Below the pieces are notes generated by a model. It did no database searches, was not told where the DNA came from, and saw only the letters and a list, made by a program, of their open reading frames with translations. A DNA stretch of 64,000 bases from a virus (taxonomy: Duplodnaviria > Caudoviricetes): the IMG/VR virus record IMGVR_UViG_3300013121_000039, positions 74,311-138,310 of that record; one strand, 5' to 3'. Positions 10,108 to 18,787 of this stretch are shown here, piece after piece. Position 1 is the first letter of the stretch, and every line of letters begins with the position of its first letter. Made by a program: the position numbers and the translations under genes.

Positions 10108-10431
10108 ATGGTCCTTGAGGGCGACGAGCCCCTCTACGAGCTGAACGAGTCAGAGCTGCTGTGGATGGCTCGTCTTCAGGGGCTCCCGCTTCTTAGGCGA
10201 GGAATTCCGCGCGAGGAGCTCGTGGAACTCGTGTCGGGCAGCAGGGCCGTGGAGGAGAGACACCAAGCAAGCACCAACTACACGAGGGGACGGCTCGAAG
10301 ACTTCGTGCAGGCCAACATCGACCGGCTCCGTGGGCAGCTCCCAGGCTGCAACGGGCTGTGTCGAACCTTCCAGTGCACCGAAGGCAAGCACATGTCGTG
10401 CTTCATGCCGAACGAGGCACTGCTGCTATGA
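10108..10431 (+). CDS. Helix-extension-helix-like domain plus Cys cluster protein
   Basis: LNESELLWMARLQGL...IPREELVELV; CNGLC..C. Confidence 0.6.
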   Translation: MVLEGDEPLYELNESELLWMARLQGLPLLRRGIPREELVELVSGSRAVEERHQASTNYTRGRLEDFVQANIDRLRGQLPGCNGLCRTFQCTEGKHMSCFMPNEALLL

Positions 10432-11696
10432 GCACCTACCAAGAGTGTTTCACCTGTGCGAAGGTGGGGTACTGCTCAAAGACCGACGTGCAGAAGATCT
10501 TGAGGGGGTTTGTCTGCCCACTCTTCGCTCCGGTGACGGAGCCGATCATCATGGCGCGCTGTTCGATGATCGATCAGTACGGCCCCATCCCAGCAGCCCG
10601 CGCCATGCTGCACAGGCCGCCAGACGCGAACCAGGAGGAGCATGTCCAGATGACCTACGACGCCCCGCCAGCCCAGGGGACGACGTACGCTGACCGCCGC
10701 AAGCAGCTCGAAATCATGTCCTTCACCGAGGTGCGCCTTCTCGGCAACAAGCGGTACAAGACTGCCGACGGCCAGCCCGTGTTGGACTGGGACGAGTCTC
10801 TCCAGATCGACAGGAAGTCCCAGTCCATCGAGAAGATCCTCCAGTTCGAGCTCGTGAACGGCATCATCGTCCCCGACAACCAGCAGTCCACCCAACCGCA
10901 AGGAGCAGACCAGATGGCCCAGCAGCCCGTGCCCCCGCAGTTCCCGCCCAACGGCGCCCCCCAGATGCCGCAGGCCTTCCAGCCGCCGGCGCCCGGCGCC
11001 CAGCCGCAGCAGATGCCGATGCCGCCCAACGCCCCGCCCATGCCCCCGCAGATGGCGCCGCCGATGCAGCAGATGGCGCCCCCGCCGATGGGCCCGCCCG
11101 CCTTCCAGCCGCCCCCCGGCTTCGCCCCGCAGGCCGGCCCCGGCCCCATGGGCACCCCGCAGCTCCCGCAGACGGAGGCTCCGGCGCCCCAGGCGGGGGG
11201 CAAGAAGAAGCGGAACTCCGGCGCCGCCGCGGCGCCACCGCCGGCGCCCGCGCCCGGGCCGGGCACGCCCCCGCAGCAGCCCAACGCCCCCATGATGGCC
11301 CCGCCGGCCGGGCCCCCGGCCTTCCAGCCGGGCGGCTTCGCGCCGCCGCAGCAGGGCTTCCAGCAGCCCCAGCAGCCCGGGTTCGCGCCGCCCCAGCAGC
11401 AGGGCTTCGCGCCGCCCCAGGCCGCGCCGCAGCCGGCGCCCCAGGCCGCCGTGGACCTCACCCCGGTCCTCCAGCTCATCGACCAGGTGGGCAAGGCCGT
11501 CAACGCCCTCGGGGCCGCCGAGGGTGAGACCCTGGCGCGCCTGGAGCGGAACCTCCAGGTGCTCACCATCGGCGTCATGCACATCTACGGGTCGCAGACC
11601 CAGCTGATGCAGTGGCTCTCCGGCCAGAACAAGGCCGACGCCGTGCAGGACCCGACGAAGTTCGTCGAGTTCCTCTCCCAGTACCTCCCTCGGTAA
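10428..11696 (+). CDS. Protein with N-terminal Cys domain, long Pro/Gln-rich disordered linker and C-terminal helical domain
   Basis: About 180 aa of P/Q/G/A/M low complexity in the translation. Confidence 0.8.
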   Translation: MSTYQECFTCAKVGYCSKTDVQKILRGFVCPLFAPVTEPIIMARCSMIDQYGPIPAARAMLHRPPDANQEEHVQMTYDAPPAQGTTYADRRKQLEIMSFTEVRLLGNKRYKTADGQPVLDWDESLQIDRKSQSIEKILQFELVNGIIVPDNQQSTQPQGADQMAQQPVPPQFPPNGAPQMPQAFQPPAPGAQPQQMPMPPNAPPMPPQMAPPMQQMAPPPMGPPAFQPPPGFAPQAGPGPMGTPQLPQTEAPAPQAGGKKKRNSGAAAAPPPAPAPGPGTPPQQPNAPMMAPPAGPPAFQPGGFAPPQQGFQQPQQPGFAPPQQQGFAPPQAAPQPAPQAAVDLTPVLQLIDQVGKAVNALGAAEGETLARLERNLQVLTIGVMHIYGSQTQLMQWLSGQNKADAVQDPTKFVEFLSQYLPR

Positions 11697-11773
11697 GGAC
11701 GCCGGCAGCCGCGCCGGAGGGAGTGCCTCCTCCCTCCGGCCGGCGTCCCAATACCATCCCGCCCACGACCCTC

Positions 11774-11929
11774 ATGTCGCTGACCAGCGACCAGACGAAC
11801 GTGATGAGTGACGAGCAGCTCATCGCGTTCCTCGACTTCTACCAGGGCGTGCGGCTGCCTCAGGGCACTCCACGCTCAGTGCTGCTCTCCAAGCTGCACT
11901 CGGTCGCCATCGTCGCGAGGGACTTCTGA
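11774..11929 (+). CDS. Small HeH-like protein (51 aa)
   Basis: MSDEQLIAFL...GVRLPQGTPRSVLLSKL. Confidence 0.45.
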   Translation: MSLTSDQTNVMSDEQLIAFLDFYQGVRLPQGTPRSVLLSKLHSVAIVARDF

Positions 11930-12055
11930 GACGGTGAGAGAACGCGGTTACGAAATCAGGCGTCTCAGTCGCCTGTAGGGACTGCGCCAGGGGCGAGGTC
12001 AACCGCGCGAGATACCTACTCCGCGGCTCCAGCGTGAAGCCACTACCGAGCAGTG

Positions 12056-12096
12056 GAAGCAGGCCTGCGGCGAGTCCCCGGGCCTGCTTCTTTTTT
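12056..12096 (+). terminator. Rho-independent terminator
   Basis: GAAGCAGGCC...GGCCTGCTTC stem followed by T6. Confidence 0.85.
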
Positions 12097-12102
12097 ACCC
12101 AC

Positions 12103-12131
12103 TTGACTCTGCGGAACGTGCTGACTAAGGT
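12103..12131 (+). promoter_or_regulatory. Sigma70-type promoter of tRNA operon
   Basis: TTGACT-N17-TAAGGT. Confidence 0.75.
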
Positions 12132-12140
12132 GCTCCTCGC

Positions 12141-12296
12141 ATGACGCTCTTGTCGCAAACACGGTGGTCGGACTCAGTGGCCGAAAGGGCCCTGCTGTCC
12201 CACGTGTATGCGGCGATGGAGTGCGCCACCCTCGTGGCCTCCAAGCGCGACCCCCAGGCCCAGATCCCGTTCAACGGTAGCAGGCCCGGCCCATAG
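12141..12296 (+). CDS. Putative attenuator leader peptide (51 aa, all 20 amino acids)
   Basis: MTLLSQTRWSDSVAERALLSHVYAAMECATLVASKRDPQAQIPFNGSRPGP; ATG 9 nt after the -10 box. Confidence 0.65.
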   Translation: MTLLSQTRWSDSVAERALLSHVYAAMECATLVASKRDPQAQIPFNGSRPGP

Positions 12297-12364
12297 AAGA
12301 ACCACTCCAGAGTGGACCCCTTCTAGAGGCCGGGCGAGCAAAGGCTCCCCGGCCTCTTCGTTTT
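12284..12364 (+). terminator. Overlapping antiterminator (12284-12335) and terminator (12325-12364)
   Basis: Terminator AGAGGCCGGG/CCCGGCCTCT + TCGTTTT; alternative pairing GCCCGGCC/GGCCGGGC and TAGAAG/CTTCTA. Confidence 0.75.
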
Positions 12365-12398
12365 CCTGAGGAGGCACGGATGAAACGACAACCGACAT

Positions 12399-12470
12399 AG
12401 GTCCCCATGCCCAAGGCTGGCGAGCTGGTCTCCAAAACCGGCTGGGAGGGTTCGATTCCCTCGGGACCTG
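12399..12470 (+). tRNA. tRNA-Trp(CCA), atypical D arm
   Basis: Cloverleaf, loop CTCCAAA, TTCGATT. Confidence 0.85.
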
Positions 12471-12476
12471 CTGTAC

Positions 12477-12550
12477 GCCCTGGTAGCTCAGCTGGTAGCA
12501 GCGCCGCACTCGTAATGCGGAGGTCGCCGGTTCGACTCCGGCTCAGGGCT
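12477..12550 (+). tRNA. tRNA-Thr(CGT)
   Basis: Loop CTCGTAA. Confidence 0.92.
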
Positions 12551-12561
12551 CACAAGAAGAT

Positions 12562-12637
12562 GCGGCTCTAGCTCAGCTGGTAGAGCGCTGCCTTGCCAAG
12601 GCAGAGGTCGCGGGTTCGATTCCCGTGAGCCGCTCCA
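12562..12637 (+). tRNA. tRNA-Gly(GCC)
   Basis: Loop TTGCCAA, CCA end. Confidence 0.95.
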
Positions 12638-12641
12638 GTAC

Positions 12642-12723
12642 GGGGACGTTGACGGTAAGGGTACCGACGCCGGCTGTAAACCGGCTCTCCTTGAGCAACC
12701 TGGTTCGAGTCCAGGCGGCCCCA
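12642..12723 (+). tRNA. tRNA-Tyr(GTA)
   Basis: Loop CTGTAAA, long variable arm. Confidence 0.85.
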
Positions 12724-12737
12724 TTCGCAGCACCGCA

Positions 12738-12749
12738 GTTCTTTGACAA
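12738..12749 (+). promoter_or_regulatory. boxA-like antitermination site
   Basis: GTTCTTTGACAA resembles rrn boxA. Confidence 0.65.
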
Positions 12750-12776
12750 CTGAATCGCAGTGACAGTGAAGATGCA

Positions 12777-12847
12777 GGGACGGGTGCGTCCCACGATGCT
12801 CTGCGCCTGAACTCGTGTCAGGAGCAACATCAGCGCGCACCCGTCCC
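12777..12847 (+). ncRNA. Unassigned long hairpin RNA
   Basis: 12-bp closing stem GGGACGGGTGCG/CGCACCCGTCCC. Confidence 0.45.
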
Positions 12848-12858
12848 AGCAGTACTTC

Positions 12859-12929
12859 GCGTCTCTAGCTCTGGGGAGAGCAGTGGCCTTTTAAGCCGAA
12901 AGAAGTGGGTTCGACTCCCACGGGACGCA
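12859..12929 (+). tRNA. tRNA-Lys(TTT)
   Basis: Loop CTTTTAA. Confidence 0.85.
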
Positions 12930-12934
12930 CACAC

Positions 12935-13010
12935 GCCTGCGTAACTCAACTGGTAGAGTACTCGGCTCTTAACCGAGAAGTTGTGGGTTCGACTCCCTCC
13001 GCAGGTACCA
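12935..13010 (+). tRNA. tRNA-Lys(CTT)
   Basis: Loop CTCTTAA, CCA end. Confidence 0.93.
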
Positions 13011-13013
13011 TCT

Positions 13014-13091
13014 TCCTCGTTGGTGCAGTCAGCTGTTGAGCACGTCGCGCTTGAAGCGCGGAGGCCCTGGCCTTGCGATCAGGACGAGGAG
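13014..13091 (+). ncRNA. Aberrant tRNA-like element (loop CTTGAAG, non-canonical 8-nt T loop)
   Basis: Acceptor TCCTCGT/ACGAGGA, D stem GTGC/GCAC, no TTCG. Confidence 0.55.
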
Positions 13092-13097
13092 CATCAT

Positions 13098-13173
13098 GCG
13101 GCACTAGCTCAGTTGGTAGAGCGTCGGCTTCCCAAGCCGAAGGTCGCGGGTTCGAATCCCGCGTGCCGCTCCA
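13098..13173 (+). tRNA. tRNA-Gly(CCC)
   Basis: Loop TTCCCAA, CCA end. Confidence 0.95.
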
Positions 13174-13177
13174 GCAT

Positions 13178-13252
13178 GCGGGTGTAGCTCAGTGGTAGAG
13201 CTCTGGCCTTCCAAGCCGGGAGTCGACGGTTCGAATCCGTTCACCCGCTCCA
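13178..13252 (+). tRNA. tRNA-Gly(TCC)
   Basis: Loop CTTCCAA, CCA end. Confidence 0.95.
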
Positions 13253-13262
13253 TCTTCTCCGT

Positions 13263-13333
13263 ACCCGGGTAGCTTAATGGCAGAGCTCCAGCCTATGAAG
13301 CTGGCGATGCGGCTTCGAGACCCGCCCTGGGGG
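13263..13333 (+). tRNA. Atypical tRNA with ATG anticodon (His codon box), embedded in a larger structure
   Basis: CCAGC-CTATGAA-GCTGG; imperfect T stem and acceptor. Confidence 0.55.
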
Positions 13334-13497
13334 AGATCGTCGTGAGGGGTACTGAACCCCAATCGGCTACGGAGAGTACCGGGTCGCGAGGCCCGGGCAG
13401 GCCCTCCTCGATGAGTGGGGAGGTGGAAGATGCAGGGCCATCGGGGCCCGAGCCTCTGCCATGTCGGTGAGATCCCGGCCGCCTGACACAAGTTCGC

Positions 13498-13571
13498 AGA
13501 GGAGTCGTCCAACGGCAGGACGCTGGTCTTTGGAGCCAGCTATCTCGGTTCGAATCCGAGCTCCTCTTCCA
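13498..13571 (+). tRNA. tRNA-Gln(TTG)
   Basis: Loop CTTTGGA, CCA end. Confidence 0.93.
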
Positions 13572-13577
13572 CTTCGC

Positions 13578-13652
13578 AGGGGTGTAGTTCAACGGCAGAA
13601 CGTCTGGCTCTGGACCAGAAAGTTGAAGGTTCGAATCCTTCCACCCCTTCCA
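13578..13652 (+). tRNA. tRNA-Gln(CTG)
   Basis: Loop CTCTGGA, CCA end. Confidence 0.93.
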
Positions 13653-13656
13653 CCTT

Positions 13657-13732
13657 GCCGGCGTAGCTCAGTTGGCAGAGCAGCCGCCTTGTAAGCGGCA
13701 GGTCGCGAGTCCGACTCTCGCCGCCGGCTCCA
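13657..13732 (+). tRNA. tRNA-Thr(TGT)
   Basis: Loop CTTGTAA, CCA end. Confidence 0.93.
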
Positions 13733-13741
13733 TCTTCACAT

Positions 13742-13814
13742 TCCGGGGTAGCTCAACTGGCAGAGCGGGCGGCTGTTAACCGTCAGGTTGGGGGTTCGAA
13801 TCCCTCCTCCGGAG
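13742..13814 (+). tRNA. tRNA-Asn(GTT)
   Basis: Loop CTGTTAA. Confidence 0.95.
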
Positions 13815-13820
13815 CTTCAT

Positions 13821-13895
13821 GAGTCGCAAGTCATCGAGGGATGGCCGCGGTCTGCAACACCGCAGAGCGGAGTTCGACTCTCCGGCGACTCTCCA
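13821..13895 (+). tRNA. tRNA-Cys(GCA)
   Basis: Loop CTGCAAC, CCA end. Confidence 0.88.
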
Positions 13896-13899
13896 GTAC

Positions 13900-13974
13900 G
13901 GCCCTGTCTTCTAGCGGTAGGAAGCCGGACTCTCAATCCGGTAACGGCGGGTTCGATTCCCCCCAGGGTCACCA
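13900..13974 (+). tRNA. tRNA-Glu(CTC)
   Basis: Loop CTCTCAA, CCA end. Confidence 0.92.
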
Positions 13975-13979
13975 CTCAC

Positions 13980-14052
13980 GTCGCGTTCGTCCAGGGGCCA
14001 AGGACGCTGGCCTTTCAAGCCGGAAACGCGGGTTCGAATCCCGCACGCGATA
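13980..14052 (+). tRNA. tRNA-Glu(TTC)
   Basis: Loop CTTTCAA. Confidence 0.92.
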
Positions 14053-14055
14053 CTT

Positions 14056-14129
14056 CGGGGTGTAGCGCAGCCTGGTAGCGCGCCTGCCTTGGGCGCAGGA
14101 GGTCGCGGGTCCGAATCCCGCCACCCCGA
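14056..14129 (+). tRNA. tRNA-Pro(TGG)
   Basis: Loop CTTGGGC. Confidence 0.92.
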
Positions 14130-14192
14130 CTCGTATTTTAGGTTCAGGCCCGAAGCTAAAATAAGGGGCCGACCTGTGATGGCTTACTTCAA

Positions 14193-14266
14193 CAGCGTGT
14201 AGCTCAGCTTGGTAGAGCACCAGCTTGGGGTGCTGGGGGCCGGAGGTTCAAATCCTCTCACGCTGA
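14193..14266 (+). tRNA. tRNA-Pro(GGG)
   Basis: Loop TTGGGGT. Confidence 0.92.
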
Positions 14267-14272
14267 CTTCTT

Positions 14273-14346
14273 CGGGGTGTAGCTCAGACTGGTAGAGCGC
14301 ACGGTTCGGGACCGTGAGGTCGCTGGTTCGATTCCAGTCACCCCGA
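14273..14346 (+). tRNA. tRNA-Pro(CGG)
   Basis: Loop TTCGGGA. Confidence 0.93.
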
Positions 14347-14354
14347 CTCTTCAT

Positions 14355-14432
14355 CCGCTCGTAGCTCACGTGGCCCAGAGCACCCGCCTGATAAGCGGGA
14401 GGTAGGTGGTTCAAGTCCACCCGAGCGGACCA
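14355..14432 (+). tRNA. tRNA-Ile(GAT)
   Basis: Loop CTGATAA, CCA end. Confidence 0.93.
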
Positions 14433-14439
14433 TCTTCAT

Positions 14440-14514
14440 GGTGATGTTCGTCCAACGGCAGGACATGGGATTGTGGATCCCAGAATGAGAGTTCGACCCT
14501 CTCACATCACCCCA
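14440..14514 (+). tRNA. tRNA-His(GTG)
   Basis: G-1, loop TTGTGGA, CCA end. Confidence 0.92.
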
Positions 14515-14519
14515 TTCAC

Positions 14520-14612
14520 GGGGGACCTCTCCGCAGCGGAGGGTACATGCCCACCGGCTCTTGCGCGCCGACACGGCTAAGGTCCTGGGGTTGAAGTCCC
14601 CGGTCCCCCTCC
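14520..14612 (+). ncRNA. tRNA-like element with remodelled D and anticodon arms
   Basis: Acceptor GGGGGAC/GTCCCCC and T-like arm; interior hairpins non-canonical. Confidence 0.55.
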
Positions 14613-14620
14613 TTCGTCCT

Positions 14621-14695
14621 GGGGTCATCGTTCATCGGTCAGGACACCGGCCTGTCACGCCGGAGAGGCGAGTTCGATTCTCGCTGGCCCCGCCA
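14621..14695 (+). tRNA. tRNA-Asp(GTC)
   Basis: Loop CTGTCAC, CCA end. Confidence 0.94.
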
Positions 14696-14699
14696 TCTT

Positions 14700-14775
14700 G
14701 GAGCGATAGCTCAGCAGGTAGAGCACTGGTCTGAAGAGCCGGGTGTCGCAGGTTCGATTCCTGCTCGCTCCACCA
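14700..14775 (+). tRNA. tRNA-Phe(GAA)
   Basis: Loop CTGAAGA, CCA end. Confidence 0.93.
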
Positions 14776-14777
14776 CC

Positions 14778-14870
14778 CTTCGCAGCAACCTCATGAATCG
14801 CGATGCGGGACCCTACCCCGCCTCTCACGACGACGAGGGCCTCGGTACTTGCGGCCGCGGTGCTGCGAAG
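14778..14870 (+). ncRNA. Unassigned multi-branch structured spacer RNA
   Basis: Closing stem CTTCGCAGCA/TGCTGCGAAG with two inner hairpins. Confidence 0.45.
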
Positions 14871-14877
14871 ACTTCTT

Positions 14878-14950
14878 GGGGCCGTAGCTCAGTTGGGAGA
14901 GCGCCTGCTTCGCACGCAGGAGGTCAAGGGTTCGACTCCCTTCGGTTCCA
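14878..14950 (+). tRNA. tRNA-Ala(CGC)
   Basis: Loop TTCGCAC, G3:U70. Confidence 0.93.
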
Positions 14951-14953
14951 CAT

Positions 14954-15029
14954 GCGCGCGTAGTTCAGTGGCCAGAACGCTGCCTTGACATGGCAGAGAT
15001 CGCCGGTTCGAGTCCGGCCGCGCGTACCA
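14954..15029 (+). tRNA. tRNA-Val(GAC)
   Basis: Loop TTGACAT, CCA end. Confidence 0.93.
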
Positions 15030-15035
15030 CTTCCC

Positions 15036-15111
15036 GGGGCTATAGCTCAGACGGGAGAGCGCCTGGATGGCATCCAGGAGGTCGTCGGTTCGATCCCGAC
15101 TGGCTCCACCA
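15036..15111 (+). tRNA. tRNA-Ala(GGC)
   Basis: Loop ATGGCAT, CCA end. Confidence 0.94.
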
Positions 15112-15117
15112 CTTCAC

Positions 15118-15193
15118 GGGTCCATAGCTCCAACGGGAGAGCAGCGGCTTTGCAAGCCGACGGTTGCCGGTTCGAGTCCGGCTGGATCCACCA
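15118..15193 (+). tRNA. tRNA-Ala(TGC)
   Basis: Loop TTTGCAA, CCA end. Confidence 0.92.
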
Positions 15194-15207
15194 CATCAGG
15201 AGTACGC

Positions 15208-15423
15208 ATGCCGCGGCCGCCAGAGGCTCAAGCCCTCTTCGAAAGGAGCGGGATGTTCTCGACTCACGAGAAGTTGGTCTCCTTCCTCTACGAGCTGATG
15301 AGGGACCACCTTCCCCCAGGAGTCGTCGAGAGGCTCGTCCAGAACAACCAGGAGACTCCGGCGTCGCTGACGAACGGCTACCTGGCGCAGTACGCCAAGG
15401 ACCTCGCCGACCGACTCAAGTAG
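15208..15423 (+). CDS. Small hypothetical protein inside tRNA array
   Basis: AGGAG SD; LVSFLYELMRDHLPPGVVE...NGYLAQYA. Confidence 0.75.
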   Translation: MPRPPEAQALFERSGMFSTHEKLVSFLYELMRDHLPPGVVERLVQNNQETPASLTNGYLAQYAKDLADRLK

Positions 15424-15424
15424 T

Positions 15425-15498
15425 GCCGATGTAGCTCAGAGGCAGAGCACTGCCTTGGTAAGGCAGCGGTCTGGGTTCGACCCCCAGCATCGGCTCCA
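15425..15498 (+). tRNA. tRNA-Thr(GGT)
   Basis: Loop TTGGTAA, CCA end. Confidence 0.92.
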
Positions 15499-15502
15499 TC
15501 AT

Positions 15503-15580
15503 CCGCCCGTAGCTCAGCTGGATCAGAGCGCTTGACTACGAATCAAGAGGCCGGGGGTTCGAATCCCTCCGGGCGGACCA
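15503..15580 (+). tRNA. tRNA-Arg(ACG)
   Basis: Loop CTACGAA, CCA end. Confidence 0.94.
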
Positions 15581-15583
15581 CAT

Positions 15584-15661
15584 GCGTCTGTAGCTCAGAT
15601 GGAAGAGAGCGCTGGCCTCCGAAGCCAGAGGGCGGGGGTTCGAGTCCCTCCAGACGCGCCA
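15584..15661 (+). tRNA. tRNA-Arg(CCG)
   Basis: Loop CTCCGAA, CCA end. Confidence 0.94.
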
Positions 15662-15664
15662 CAT

Positions 15665-15739
15665 GCTCCTGTAGCTCAGGTGGACGAGAGCGGCTGTTTC
15701 CTAAACAGCAGGCCGGGTGTTCGAGTCACCCCAGGAGCA
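15665..15739 (+). tRNA. tRNA-Arg(CCT)
   Basis: Loop TTCCTAA. Confidence 0.92.
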
Positions 15740-15745
15740 CTTCAC

Positions 15746-15827
15746 TGCGGGATCGTCTAGTGGCCATGACACCGGGCTCATAACCCGGGGGCGAAAGCCA
15801 TCGTGGGTTCGAGTCCCACTCCCGCAA
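15746..15827 (+). tRNA. tRNA-Met(CAT), initiator-like, with long variable arm
   Basis: CCGGG-CTCATAA-CCCGG; variable hairpin GGC-GAAA-GCC. Confidence 0.85.
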
Positions 15828-15830
15828 CAT

Positions 15831-15906
15831 GCACGCCGAGGTAGCTGGAGACACCGCCTCTCTCACACGGAGGACTTGCTGGGTTCGATCCCCAGGGCGT
15901 GCACCA
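15831..15906 (+). tRNA. tRNA-Val(CAC)
   Basis: Loop CTCACAC, CCA end. Confidence 0.85.
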
Positions 15907-15913
15907 TCTTCAT

Positions 15914-15998
15914 GTCCAGGTGGCGGAACTGGTAGACGCACCAGCTTGAGGGGCTGGCGGGTAACACCGTGCGGGTTCGATTCCCGCCCTGGACACCA
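15914..15998 (+). tRNA. tRNA-Leu(GAG)
   Basis: Loop TTGAGGG, CCA end. Confidence 0.94.
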
Positions 15999-16003
15999 TC
16001 TTC

Positions 16004-16087
16004 GGTCGAGTGGCGGAATGGTAGACGCACCTGGCTCAGAACCAGGCGGGTAACACCGTGAGAGTTCGACTCTCTCCTCGACCACCA
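16004..16087 (+). tRNA. tRNA-Leu(CAG)
   Basis: Loop CTCAGAA, CCA end. Confidence 0.94.
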
Positions 16088-16091
16088 TCAT

Positions 16092-16172
16092 GCCCGAGTG
16101 GCGGAACGGTAGACGCGGCGGACTCAAAACCCGCTGCCGAGAGGCGTGCCGGTTCGAGTCCGGCTTCGGGCA
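16092..16172 (+). tRNA. tRNA-Leu(CAA)
   Basis: Loop CTCAAAA. Confidence 0.93.
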
Positions 16173-16211
16173 CTTCACGCAGTACCACTACAACAAGAAA
16201 GGAGCGTAGCG

Positions 16212-16756
16212 ATGGACACGTTGGTGTTGTCCCACGCCTACGAGCCCGTCGCACGCGTCCACTGGCAACGGGCCGTAACCCTCCTCTGGGAGGGCAAGGT
16301 CGAGGTCATCGAGGAGTACGAGAGCAGGACGGTCAGGTCGGTCACGCTGGAGTTCAAGATCCCCAGCATCATCCGCTTCCTCAACGTCATCCGCCGGCGC
16401 AAGCCGTCGATGAAGTTCTCGCGAGAGAACGTCTTCGCTCGGGACAAGGGCCGCTGCCAGTACTGCGGCAACAAGGTCACGAGAGCAGAGTCGACCTACG
16501 ACCACGTCACCCCGCGGTCGAAGGGGGGCGGGACGAACTGGGAGAACGTCGTCATCGCCTGCACCCCGTGCAACCAGCGGAAGAGCGACAAGACCCCGGC
16601 CCAGGCCGGCATGAAGCTGCTCTCGGTGCCGGTGAAGCCGGCGCACCTGCCTGGCACCACCAGGCTGACGTTCCTGCTCGACAAGAACGTGCCGCAGTCC
16701 TGGAAGCAGCTCATGATGGACTACGGCTACTGGCACGGCGAGCTGGAGCACGACTA

Positions 16757-16757
<1 letters not shown>
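16212..16757 (+). CDS. HNH endonuclease
   Basis: RDKGRCQYCG...DHVTPRSKGG..NWENVVIACTPCNQRK. Confidence 0.92.
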
Positions 16758-16848
<91 letters not shown>

Positions 16849-16914
16849 GCGTGTGTGGCCCCGAGCACCTTGGGTGTCTGGCACTCAGCCAGAGCGCACC
16901 ATCGGGGCATCCTT

Positions 16915-17004
16915 GGAAGAGTGGGTGAGTGGCTCAAACCACCGGCCTCGAAAACCGGACGTGGGGCAACCTGCGCGAGAGTTCGAATCTCTCCTCTTCC
17001 GCCA
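16915..17004 (+). tRNA. tRNA-Ser(CGA)
   Basis: Loop CTCGAAA, CCA end. Confidence 0.93.
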
Positions 17005-17009
17005 TCTTT

Positions 17010-17099
17010 GGAAGCGTGGCCGAGTGGCTCAAGGCACCAGCTTGGAAAGCTGGAGGTGGCTCCGGCTGCCCGCAGGTTCGAATCCTGCCGCTTCCGCCA
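17010..17099 (+). tRNA. tRNA-Ser(GGA)
   Basis: Loop TTGGAAA, CCA end. Confidence 0.94.
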
Positions 17100-17102
17100 T
17101 CT

Positions 17103-17193
17103 GGAGAGGTGGGCGAGTGGCTCATGCCGCCGGTTTGCTAAACCGGTCTGCGATCACATCAAAGCGAGGGTTCGAATCCCTCCCTCTCCGCCA
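17103..17193 (+). tRNA. tRNA-Ser(GCT)
   Basis: Loop TTGCTAA, CCA end. Confidence 0.9.
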
Positions 17194-17196
17194 CAT

Positions 17197-17273
17197 GCCC
17201 CCGTAGCTCAGAGGACAAGAGCAGCCGCCTTCTAAGCGGACGGTCGCTGGTTCGAGTCCAGCCGGGGGCACCA
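17197..17273 (+). tRNA. tRNA-Arg(TCT)
   Basis: Loop CTTCTAA, CCA end. Confidence 0.94.
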
Positions 17274-17297
17274 CTGTCACTACGACTCAGGAGTCCT

Positions 17298-17555
17298 ATG
17301 AAGAAGGTCGCGAAGATCACCGGCCGGGCGCTCTGCTACGACGTGCTGGAGTGCCCCATCTGCGAAGCCCGCACCGTCGTCAACGAGAACATGCCCTGGT
17401 GCGCCACGTGCGGCACCGAGTACTACCACGGCCGAGACGACCGGAAGACCGGCGCCAGACGCTGGGTCTTCGACACGAAGCGGAAGACGCCACAGTACGC
17501 CTGGGGCAAGGCCCTGAACCTGTCCGGCGGGATACGGATCGGGCCGAAGAAGTAG
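17298..17555 (+). CDS. Zinc-ribbon protein
   Basis: CPIC...CATCG; AGGAG SD. Confidence 0.7.
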   Translation: MKKVAKITGRALCYDVLECPICEARTVVNENMPWCATCGTEYYHGRDDRKTGARRWVFDTKRKTPQYAWGKALNLSGGIRIGPKK

Positions 17556-17588
17556 AGGGGCGGGCCGCTGCGCCCGCCCCTCTTTCTT
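17553..17588. terminator. Terminator between convergent units
   Basis: AGAGGGGCGGGC/GCCCGCCCCTCT + TTCTT. Confidence 0.75.
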
Positions 17589-17626
17589 AGCTCACTTCAC
17601 CATTGGAGTGGCCTTCCTTTCCCCAG

Positions 17627-17947
17627 TTACCCGCCGAAGAGCTTCTCGTCGCGGCACTGGATGCAGAACGTGTCTGCGTCTGGGTACTGCCCCTTCAACA
17701 TGAAGACCCGGTGACCGCAGGGCAGCTCACGAGTCCGGAAGTGCCGGTTCGTGTAGTGCGTCCGCATGTGCGAAGCGCGAGGGTGCTTGTCTCCCACGTC
17801 GATCGACACCTTCGGCCCAACCAGCCCCGGCTTGGGAGCGTGGTAGGACGACTTGGAGACGTCGGTGTAGTAGACCTTGCGCTTGTGGTGATGGTCAGTC
17901 GGGCCCCCGGACGAGCGCCTGCTGCGCCCGAAAACAAGGGTAGCCAT
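17627..17947 (-). CDS. Basic protein with C-terminal Zn finger
   Basis: AGGAGG SD; LPCGH...CIQC. Confidence 0.7.
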   Translation of the reverse strand: MATLVFGRSRRSSGGPTDHHHKRKVYYTDVSKSSYHAPKPGLVGPKVSIDVGDKHPRASHMRTHYTNRHFRTRELPCGHRVFMLKGQYPDADTFCIQCRDEKLFGG

Positions 17948-18051
17948 ACAGCCTCCTAGAGCTGGTCGAGATCAGGTCTGACCGCTGGCGCGCCTCACGG
18001 GCGCTGGGCGGGTTCTCGGGACCGGTCTAGGAGTGGGACATGACGGCGCGG

Positions 18052-18080
18052 AAGGTAGACGCGACGCCACGTAGAGTCAA
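18052..18080 (-). promoter_or_regulatory. Sigma70-type promoter followed by 4-codon uORF MSHS (18041-18027)
   Basis: TTGACT-N17-TACCTT on the minus strand. Confidence 0.65.
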
Positions 18081-18137
18081 GCGGTCATTTCCAAGCAGAA
18101 GGGGGCCCAGCTTGTACTAGGCCCCCTCGCGATCAAC

Positions 18138-18377
18138 TCAGCTTGCTTGCTTCAGGCGAATGAACTCATGCCAGCCGCACTTGTGGGGGCAGACGACGCT
18201 CGGGCTCACCTGGCCGTCGGCCGTGATGGTGTGGTTGACGAGGGACAGCAGATGGTCGCATTTCGGGCACACCAAGGCCACCGTCTGCTTGAAGACCGGA
18301 CCTGGGAAGACACTGGCGATCCATGGTCGCCAGCGTCCCTTGGTCCAAGCCCCGCCGTCTGGCAGGAGCTCCTGCAC
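18138..18377 (-). CDS. DUF6527-like small protein
   Basis: CPKC...VSPSVVCPHKCGWHEFIRL. Confidence 0.6.
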   Translation of the reverse strand: MQELLPDGGAWTKGRWRPWIASVFPGPVFKQTVALVCPKCDHLLSLVNHTITADGQVSPSVVCPHKCGWHEFIRLKQAS

Positions 18378-18787
18378 TAGAAGCTGCCCTTGATGCGGAT
18401 CCCAGTGGCCCGGCGGAAGGCGCCGGTCGGGTACTTCACGTCGCGCTCGGTGTAGTCGTCCACGACCTCTCGGTCCGCCGAATAGCCGCGGCAGACCTTG
18501 GCGTCCTGGTCACCCGGCAGCGCGTCGATGGCCGCCTGGGTCTGGTTGCAGCGGGAGCACTTGTCCTTCCCGGGCGGGAAGTAGTGCACCGCCATCTCCG
18601 ACGGCCAGTGGTGGAACTCCGCCACGTAGGGCCGCATGGTGGCGCGCTGCATCTCCGAGACGAAGCGGGCCATCATGCAGTCGGGGCAGGTCTCCTGCCC
18701 GCAGCCCCTGATCTCGGAGCCCTCCTTCGCGTTCCGGTCGCAGCCGTGTCCGCCCGTCGCTTCGATCACGATTCTGAAGTCACCCAT
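18377..18787 (-). CDS. Hypothetical Cys-containing protein
   Basis: GGHGCDR...CGQETCPDC; SD upstream. Confidence 0.7.
   Translation of the reverse strand: MGDFRIVIEATGGHGCDRNAKEGSEIRGCGQETCPDCMMARFVSEMQRATMRPYVAEFHHWPSEMAVHYFPPGKDKCSRCNQTQAAIDALPGDQDAKVCRGYSADREVVDDYTERDVKYPTGAFRRATGIRIKGSF

Follow-up and report, generated by a model that had tools for sequence, protein, structure and literature searches.

A candidate translation-coupled attenuator with a leader peptide of all 20 amino acids at the head of phage tRNA arrays

Background

The attenuators of enterobacterial operons, including trpL, hisL, leuL, pheL and the leaders of ilvGMEDA (Ile/Leu/Val) and thr (Thr/Ile), combine a short translated leader with a terminator whose 5' arm has an alternative pairing partner; the position of the ribosome picks the structure, and a stall upstream results in read-through. 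In the present work, we describe a similarly organized element in a 64,000-nucleotide (nt) stretch of a phage genome (Caudoviricetes; IMG/VR record IMGVR_UViG_3300013121_000039), where a 51-codon leader open reading frame (ORF) that contains all 20 amino acids and two competing RNA hairpins precede an array of 41 transfer RNA (tRNA) genes. This stretch, hereafter the window, is the last 64 kb of the 138-kb record, which has 65% GC and is estimated to be ~72% complete. Using an entirely computational analysis, we propose that the element is probably a ribosome-mediated transcription attenuator that gates the tRNA operon and senses the overall supply of aminoacyl-tRNA.

The enterobacterial attenuators control biosynthetic enzymes and carry runs of one or a few regulatory codons, whereas the phage element precedes tRNA genes and holds approximately one of each amino acid. 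It further differs from them in having three pairing segments, with read-through as the predicted default when the leader is not translated, in being phage-encoded, and in an mRNA that would often be leaderless. The pheST leader of E. coli is an example of attenuation of a component of the translation apparatus with feedback via the decoding rate; it senses Phe codons alone and controls a synthetase rather than tRNA genes. T-box riboswitches likewise sense the state of a tRNA and switch between terminator and antiterminator upstream of aminoacylation-related genes, but they bind one specific uncharged tRNA directly and without translation, whereas here a conserved ORF would be the sensor. At the pyrBI attenuator, the outcome is set by how closely the ribosome trails the polymerase to a terminator at the end of the leader ORF; a close ribosome prevents termination there, whereas an on-time ribosome is predicted to cause it in the phage element. 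In its logic and layout, the element comes closest to the multivalent leaders of ilvGMEDA and thr and to that of pheST.

Phage tRNA arrays are usually seen as constitutive cargo related to codon usage, host tRNA decay and escape from anticodon nucleases; to our knowledge, little is known about their regulation. A full-text literature search found no publication on attenuator control of this kind over tRNA genes, and the words promoter, terminator and leader are absent from two papers on tRNA array units that likewise contain an HNH gene.

Architecture of the leader region

The features of the region are collected in Table 1. The terminator of the upstream gene block would insulate the leader promoter from upstream transcription. 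This promoter was found exactly where the sequence-only reading, a model-made annotation of the same DNA, had placed it, and the distance from its -10 box, TAAGGT, to the ATG of the leader ORF is 9 nt; to judge from this spacing, the leader mRNA would be leaderless or near-leaderless. A generic promoter scan did not report it. The strict pattern TTGACN-N16-18-TAnnnT has a single plus-strand match in the window, at 12103, and such a lone motif fits a single transcription unit extending through the array to the hairpin that follows the zinc-finger ORF, the likely end of the unit.

Table 1. Features of the leader region and the tRNA array (window coordinates)
Feature	Position	Strand	Description
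Intrinsic terminator of upstream gene block	12055..12096	+	13-bp stem, -26.7 kcal/mol, then CTTTTTT
Sigma-70-like promoter	12103..12131	+	TTGACT (12103-12108), 17-nt spacer, TAAGGT (12126-12131)
Leader ORF	12141..12296	+	51 codons and TAG stop (12294-12296); all 20 amino acids, 35 distinct sense codons
Antiterminator hairpin A	12284..12335	+	-31.6 kcal/mol; in minimum-free-energy fold of leader
Intrinsic terminator	12326..12364	+	hairpin 12326-12356, ~-28 kcal/mol, then U-rich tract 12355-12364
Ribosome-binding site and mini-ORF	12368..12400	+	GAGGAGG, then 6-codon mini-ORF (12380-12400); between terminator and tRNA-Trp
tRNA array	12400..17273	+	41 genes; ARAGORN, Rfam tRNA matches, gap sequences
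56-codon ORF inside array	15253-15423	+	small protein gene
HNH endonuclease gene embedded in array	16212-16756	+	small protein gene
85-codon zinc-finger ORF, directly after last tRNA	17298-17555	+	small protein gene
GC-rich terminator-like hairpin with T-tract, 3' of zinc-finger ORF	17554..17590	+	read from sequence

The leader ORF was confirmed with its complete set of amino acids and its 35 codons. The codons that had been called rare are indeed rare in this genome: TTG, CAA, ACA, TCA, TAT and CCA make up 2-9% of their synonymous families, and AGG makes up 15%. The earlier count of 34 array tRNAs hit by the ORF stands, but the array itself comprises 41 genes by ARAGORN instead of the 40 assumed, the additional one being a tRNA-His with anticodon ATG; the seven anticodons left untouched are TTT, CCC, TCC, ATG, GAC, TGC and TCT. 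The ORF was predicted by the gene caller (P0004 in the protein collection), and its GC content at the third codon position (GC3), 0.86 against 0.59 and 0.55 at the first and second positions (GC1 and GC2; P ~6e-4), is a coding signature in this genome. No homologue beyond the leader family described below was found among 1.84 billion cluster representatives, the leader peptides match no Pfam or PHROG family, and an exhaustive protein search with the window peptide returned only the query and an artefact, the tandem-repeat protein P0005.

The GC-rich third-position periodicity of the leader frame persists for ~90 nt beyond the TAG (12297-12390), through the hairpins and across a second in-frame TAG ahead of a TGA. 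Recoding of TAG was considered for this reason and rejected: a suppressor tRNA is absent, and relatives also use TAA and TGA. The periodicity may be due to chance or be a relic of a longer ancestral ORF. A minus-strand ORF at 12125-12274 was rejected as a shadow of the leader ORF; it shares the third codon positions, and its frame is open in 8 of 18 related loci and thus unconserved.

In the fold of the leader, segment 1 (12284-12299), which includes the last three codons and the stop, pairs with segment 2 (12320-12335) around a small apical hairpin (12302-12315) to form hairpin A. Segment 2 is at the same time the 5' arm of the terminator, in which an outer stem of 9 bp leads through a bulge to an inner stem of 4 bp capped by a tetraloop, with TCTTCGTTTT 3' of the hairpin. 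The whole leader folds more stably than its shuffles (z = -4.1). Both the coordinates and the pairings previously proposed for the two hairpins are correct in the sequence and in the folds. Their mutual exclusivity had to be narrowed: the hairpins do compete, but only the outer 8 bp of hairpin A take part, and the inner TAGAAG/CTTCTA stem is compatible with the terminator, 7-8 of whose 13 stem pairs are contested in the window. Upstream of segment 1, a small hairpin (~12266-12277) was also observed, and segment 1 has a weak alternative partner at 12254-12260.

Blocking a 30-nt ribosome footprint at the stop codon in silico yielded the terminator fold. With the ribosome placed further upstream, the equilibrium fold of the complete RNA showed no clear preference for the antiterminator; in the nascent RNA, before the 3' arm of the terminator is made, segment 1 pairs with segment 2. 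Therefore, the switch would have to be kinetic. An Rfam scan of 11500-18500 (E up to 1) gave tRNA and chance matches only, with nothing in 12096-12399; neither the T-box model (RF00230) nor the amino-acid operon leader models (His, Thr, Trp, Leu and others) matched in the leader region.

Conservation of the predicted RNA switch

We regard the relatives of the element, and not the statistics of a single sequence, as the decisive evidence. A covariance model of the switch was built from ten arrays whose start fell inside the fetched locus. Applied to 1.37 Mb of fetched loci, it gave no other match: each array has one element, always at its head, and no second attenuator was found inside an array by this model. 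Applied to full records of further relatives, it revealed seven more elements, and one further element was found in the GenBank virus Rctr197k (KX853510.1, 190315-190396, minus strand). The resulting comparison set includes 18 loci from genomes of ~100-536 kb, namely the window and loci from 17 further phage genomes with arrays that are syntenic or related.

Each locus was folded singly, without an alignment. Comparison of the folds revealed several features common to all 18 loci: (i) a terminator of -19 to -31 kcal/mol is followed by a U-rich tract, (ii) segment 1 holds 6-11 nt of the terminator 5' arm in the nascent RNA, (iii) the stop codon, TAG, TAA or TGA, lies within or beside segment 1, which spans from -19 to +11 relative to the stop and typically from -9 to 0, (iv) the distance from the stop codon to the U-tract is 54-66 nt, and (v) tRNA genes are located 3' of the element. 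The leader frame, 41-58 codons long, is open from the start codon nearest the promoter up to the segment-1 stop in every locus; for the five remaining frames, the number of open loci is only 2-9 of 18. Mean GC3 of the family ORFs is 0.73, compared with 0.56 for GC1 and GC2, and by these criteria the leader ORF looks coding.

A promoter-like sequence consisting of TTGAC-N, a 16-18-nt spacer and a hexamer starting with TA was found upstream in 16 of the 18 loci, with the full TAnnnT in 9 of these 16. The -10 element ends 7-14 nt ahead of the start codon in 12 of the promoter-bearing loci, which implies a leaderless or near-leaderless mRNA; in four loci the untranslated 5' region would measure 34-67 nt, and two loci instead carry a ribosome-binding site. 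The leader ORF of one relative, L056, is preceded by a ribosome-binding site, and a tRNA-like sequence with a CAT anticodon that was missed by ARAGORN (L056:2816-2890) is located between its promoter and its ORF. In another relative, L023, an odd tRNA-like gene stands immediately 5' of the leader promoter (L023:3884-3958).

Both helices covary. In alignments that were fitted to the structures and are hence favourable, the terminator helix (16 sequences, model-based alignment) is paired in 88% of the cells, with compensatory changes at 11 of 13 pairs and a covariation score of 0.515 versus 0.194 for shuffled alignments (0 of 500 as high; at most 0.21 with partners slid by 1-3 columns), and the antiterminator (17 sequences) is paired in 75% of the cells, with compensatory changes at 14 of 18 pairs and a score of 0.391 versus 0.162 (0 of 500 as high; slid partners at most 0.21). 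The single-sequence folds serve as the independent check. In the contested outer helix of the antiterminator, 80% of the cells are paired and 5 of 8 pairs are compensated. The three segments change in concert across the loci: segments 1, 2 and 3 are GCCCGGCC, GGCCGGGC and CCCGGCC in the window, GCCTGGC, GCCAGGC and CCTGGCC in L045, and GGGTGGC, GCCACCC and GGGTGG in L056. That both of these mutually exclusive helices are kept by compensatory change indicates an RNA switch. The comparison with trp- and his-type attenuators made in the sequence-only reading is thus borne out at the level of geometry, the combination of ORF, antiterminator and terminator recurring in the 17 further genomes.

Amino-acid composition of the leader peptides

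Full coverage of the 20 amino acids within 51 codons, on which the sequence-only reading had leaned, turned out to be a 0.5-2% event and not a common one: its frequency was 1.1% among real-gene windows of this genome, 1.7% among independent draws from the genome codon usage, and ~0.5% among open frames in Markov-generated non-coding sequence. At least 34 array tRNAs are hit in 0.085% of shuffles preserving codon positions, in ~0.1% of Markov nulls, and in 0 of 40,000 draws from codon usage. The value of 34 is the maximum over all open 51-codon windows in six frames of the 138-kb genome; with 33 reached elsewhere, the distribution has a smooth tail. These single-sequence statistics were chosen after the fact and, taken alone, are suggestive.

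The same property recurs in the relatives. Of the 18 leaders, ten have the full set of 20 residues, five have 19, two have 18, and the remaining one has 17. The 15 leaders with 19-20 residues are 41-53 codons long, and length-matched windows of each phage's own genes have on average 14.6-17.8 distinct residues. For the 17 leaders tested, the Fisher-combined P value ranges from 1.7e-7 (independent draws) to 1.7e-10 (real-gene windows), and for 15 non-redundant leaders from 3e-6 to 6e-9; since the leaders are homologous, these values overstate independence and are optimistic. The expectation that diversity would be conserved while the sequence diverges was confirmed, the median identity among the peptides being ~29%. 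Rare residues such as C, W, Y, H, F, N and D are mostly present in a single copy per leader, and the position of the single Trp varies from near the N-terminus in one clade to 3-8 codons ahead of the stop in most others. Judging from the sequences, the pattern does not look inherited residue by residue.

The claim that the leader samples nearly every isoacceptor did not survive the comparison. With the peptides fixed, the leaders use more codons and hit more array tRNAs than predicted from phage codon usage (Fisher 3.5e-6). Relative to uniform synonymous choice, their codon diversity shows no excess (Fisher ~0.09), and the family-wide codon signal is therefore explained by relaxed codon bias. 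Coverage of exact cognates is unusual only in the window's own clade. Thus, as read from these sequences, the leader can be called "pan-amino-acid" but not "pan-isoacceptor".

The three most distant elements (G009, G012 and G015) precede arrays that start with His or Asn rather than Trp. Their leaders lack W and Y, and one of them also lacks V; the sampled arrays lack tRNA-Trp and tRNA-Tyr (and tRNA-Val). In all three leaders, residues that the array serves are over-represented (P = 0.03, 0.04 and 0.0014). The match is inexact: L, F and S are present in the leaders, and the sampled regions have no tRNAs for them. The composition of the leader therefore appears to track the array repertoire, if inexactly.

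Proposed mechanism and alternative explanations

According to the proposed model, host RNA polymerase would start at the sigma-70-like promoter and produce a leaderless or near-leaderless mRNA for the leader peptide, whose last codons and stop would form segment 1, with segment 2 serving both as its partner and as the 5' arm of the terminator. A ribosome keeping pace with the polymerase would reach the stop codon as segments 2 and 3 emerge, a timing suggested by the conserved distance of 54-66 nt to the terminator, and its footprint would mask segment 1; the terminator would then form, and the 41 tRNA genes would remain untranscribed. If the ribosome lags or stalls upstream, segment 1 would be free to capture segment 2 first, and transcription would proceed into the array. 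Because the leader contains every amino acid, it would report the aminoacyl-tRNA supply as a whole: a shortage of any aminoacyl-tRNA would induce the array, and the phage tRNAs would restore the decoding speed, closing a negative feedback loop. We infer the translation of the ORF, the direction of the switch and its physiological signal from these comparisons, and would go only as far as speculation in proposing that induction of the tRNA set counters anticodon nucleases. The C-terminal Pro-Gly-Pro frequently found ahead of the stop could delay release of the peptide and keep the ribosome on segment 1, or it could equally reflect no more than the GC-rich stem in its coding sequence.

Several observations, in addition to the optimistic P values, weigh against this model. 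The antiterminator and terminator states are nearly isoenergetic and only 8 bp compete, and therefore switching would depend on kinetics; neither a pause hairpin nor a pairing of the anti-antiterminator (1:2) type, which in trp keeps ribosome and polymerase in step, was identified in the leader folds. The model predicts read-through when translation is absent, unlike trp. The last 6-7 codons, which in the window include the only Asn and both Gly, adjoin segment 1 too closely, so a ribosome stalled at one of them should cover segment 1 instead of releasing it. Hence, the earlier proposal that a ribosome at the stop causes termination and an upstream stall causes read-through agrees with the geometry, but its extension to a stall at any codon should fail for these last positions; in many relatives, the single Trp is located 3-8 codons ahead of the stop. 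In the five leaders with 19 residues, the absent amino acid is W, V, K, E or H, and for W, V and H the array of the same phage does contain a tRNA for that residue. The absence of a codon excess over uniform synonymous choice points the same way. Finally, the nearest clade (the window, L022, L023 and L122) has a common C-terminal half, which differs between L022 and L023 by synonymous changes only; a role at the level of the peptide is therefore possible.

A switch of the same kind could be coupled to translation and yet sense ribosome availability, transcription-translation coupling or the onset of host shut-off, the presence of all 20 amino acids being a by-product, e.g., of a need for an average, unbiased elongation rate. 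The geometry requires merely a ribosome that is on time at the stop codon, the codon diversity is within what relaxed codon bias gives, and the three distant leaders have only 17-18 distinct residues. However, amino-acid diversity is far above every null across divergent leaders, the residues missing in the distant leaders match the missing tRNAs while those served by the array are enriched, and the regulated genes are tRNAs, for which the aminoacyl-tRNA supply is a natural signal; on balance, we consider such general sensing unlikely, though well worth keeping in view. We assign a distinctly lower probability to the ORF being a gene for a small functional protein with its own terminator, in which case hairpin A would be only part of a compound terminator or a stabilizing 3' structure and the array would be transcribed by leaky read-through or from unrecognized promoters, without a regulated switch. 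The gene-caller prediction, the GC3 of 0.86 and the C-terminal half kept in the nearest clade would suit such a gene. Against this stand the lack of a homologue outside the leader family with its low median identity, the pairing of segment 1 with the terminator 5' arm, seen at all 18 loci and accompanied by compensatory changes, the constant place of the stop codon relative to the switch, the restriction of the element to the starts of tRNA arrays, and the absence of a second sigma-70-like promoter on the plus strand of the window.

Hairpin A, a long, near-perfect stem of ~20 bp with internal loops directly 5' of the tRNA precursor, might mainly be a processing site, e.g., for RNase III, that parts the leader from the tRNA precursor, with an incidental overlap with the terminator. 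We think this improbable: it leaves the conserved ORF, the stop position, the stop-to-U-tract distance and the amino-acid excess unexplained, and processing and attenuation could also coexist. A chance ORF in GC-rich intergenic DNA beside an ordinary terminator deserves some thought, since about a quarter of random 51-codon frames are open in DNA with 65% GC and the amino-acid coverage of the window was picked after the fact. The ORF, however, is conserved in 18 of 18 loci, openness is specific to its frame, GC3 shows periodicity and the helices covary; this reading is very unlikely, to the point that we give it almost no weight.

Genomic context and search for related loci

The tRNA genes of the window are all on the plus strand (ARAGORN, Rfam tRNA matches and the sequences of the inter-tRNA gaps) and serve all 20 amino acids. 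The end of the mini-ORF between the terminator and the array coincides with the first base of tRNA-Trp. At the corresponding position, L023 carries a ribosome-binding site and a zinc-ribbon ORF of 40 codons (L023:4237-4359), and L122 has ~380 nt of additional sequence between terminator and tRNA-Trp; the mini-ORF is probably a remnant of a small gene carried on the read-through transcript. The tRNA-His-like gene with anticodon ATG (A34; 13262-13334) scores 49.9 bits, below its neighbours; a normal tRNA-His (GTG) is also present at 14441, and the L045 array likewise holds an ATG anticodon. The motif [AC]TAAGG, which occupies the -10 position of the leader promoter (12125), recurs in two gaps within the array (14161 and 14577).

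The embedded HNH endonuclease proved to be a good marker, with hundreds of homologues at 60-80% identity, many of them within syntenic arrays of the order Trp-Thr-Gly-Tyr-Lys-Lys-Gly-Gly and so on; the order Trp-Thr-Gly-Tyr-Lys is common to L022, L023, L045, L051, L063, L122 and L123. Other searches gave the following results. Leader-region DNA matched cultured phages at tRNA-Trp only, the leader peptide and the upstream 445-aa protein had no relatives in IMG/VR searches, the zinc-finger ORF search found none either, and a metagenome scan with the peptide alignment gave nothing that was confirmed. A relative of the dNMP kinase (L002) was set aside because it lies on a fragment without tRNA genes. 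A pattern search in the DNA of viral contigs returned a single chance match (L021), a scan with a 20-nt motif returned 15 chance matches within unrelated coding genes (L028-L042), and two weak matches of the covariance model (L129 and L130) are ordinary terminators without tRNA genes nearby. No cultured member of the family was found. By HNH identity, the closest cultured relative is Myxococcus phage Mx1; its tRNA genes are scattered, and its model match is a plain terminator after a 153-codon gene, with no attenuator.

The upstream 445-aa protein (10359-11696) has conserved N- and C-terminal domains and a long, low-complexity centre rich in Pro and Gln. Two relatives of this protein (L007 and L008; 57-59% identity) have the same ~51-aa gene 3' of it and no tRNA array at that site, which makes them uninformative on the leader; because the array is absent there, the array together with its leader behaves as an insertion at this site. 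GGDEF (diguanylate cyclase) genes are located beside or within the arrays of two relatives (L010:2630-3385 and L023:11053-11919), and a TROVE/Ro60-like gene was observed in L023 and in Mx1.

Low-coverage metagenome contigs (runs X1, X2, X4 and X8) are 100% identical to the window where they cover it (10300-13300). They come from four different studies, with activated sludge (2019), soil (2024) and an anaerobic digester (2025) as sources; either the phage is very widespread and clonal, or the samples have a common source. The leader region is invariant across these contigs, leaving no natural variation to analyse.

Conclusions

The proposed sensing of aminoacyl-tRNA supply leads to a broader possibility, which we find about as easy to accept as to doubt: a family of large soil and sludge phages may carry a homeostat of the tRNA pool, in which a near-complete tRNA set is switched on when any aminoacyl-tRNA becomes limiting. 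Starvation, host shut-off or tRNA-cleaving host nucleases would trigger it, and its composition would follow the array repertoire over evolution. If this is true, phages gauge translational capacity and produce tRNAs as needed under a built-in feedback, and classical attenuation is extended from the sensing of one amino acid in biosynthetic operons to a global sensor controlling RNA genes. The element of ~260 nt is simple and testable, and would be suited to the study of transcription-translation coupling on leaderless mRNA; it would also let one ask whether defence systems that target tRNAs induce the tRNA sets of phages.

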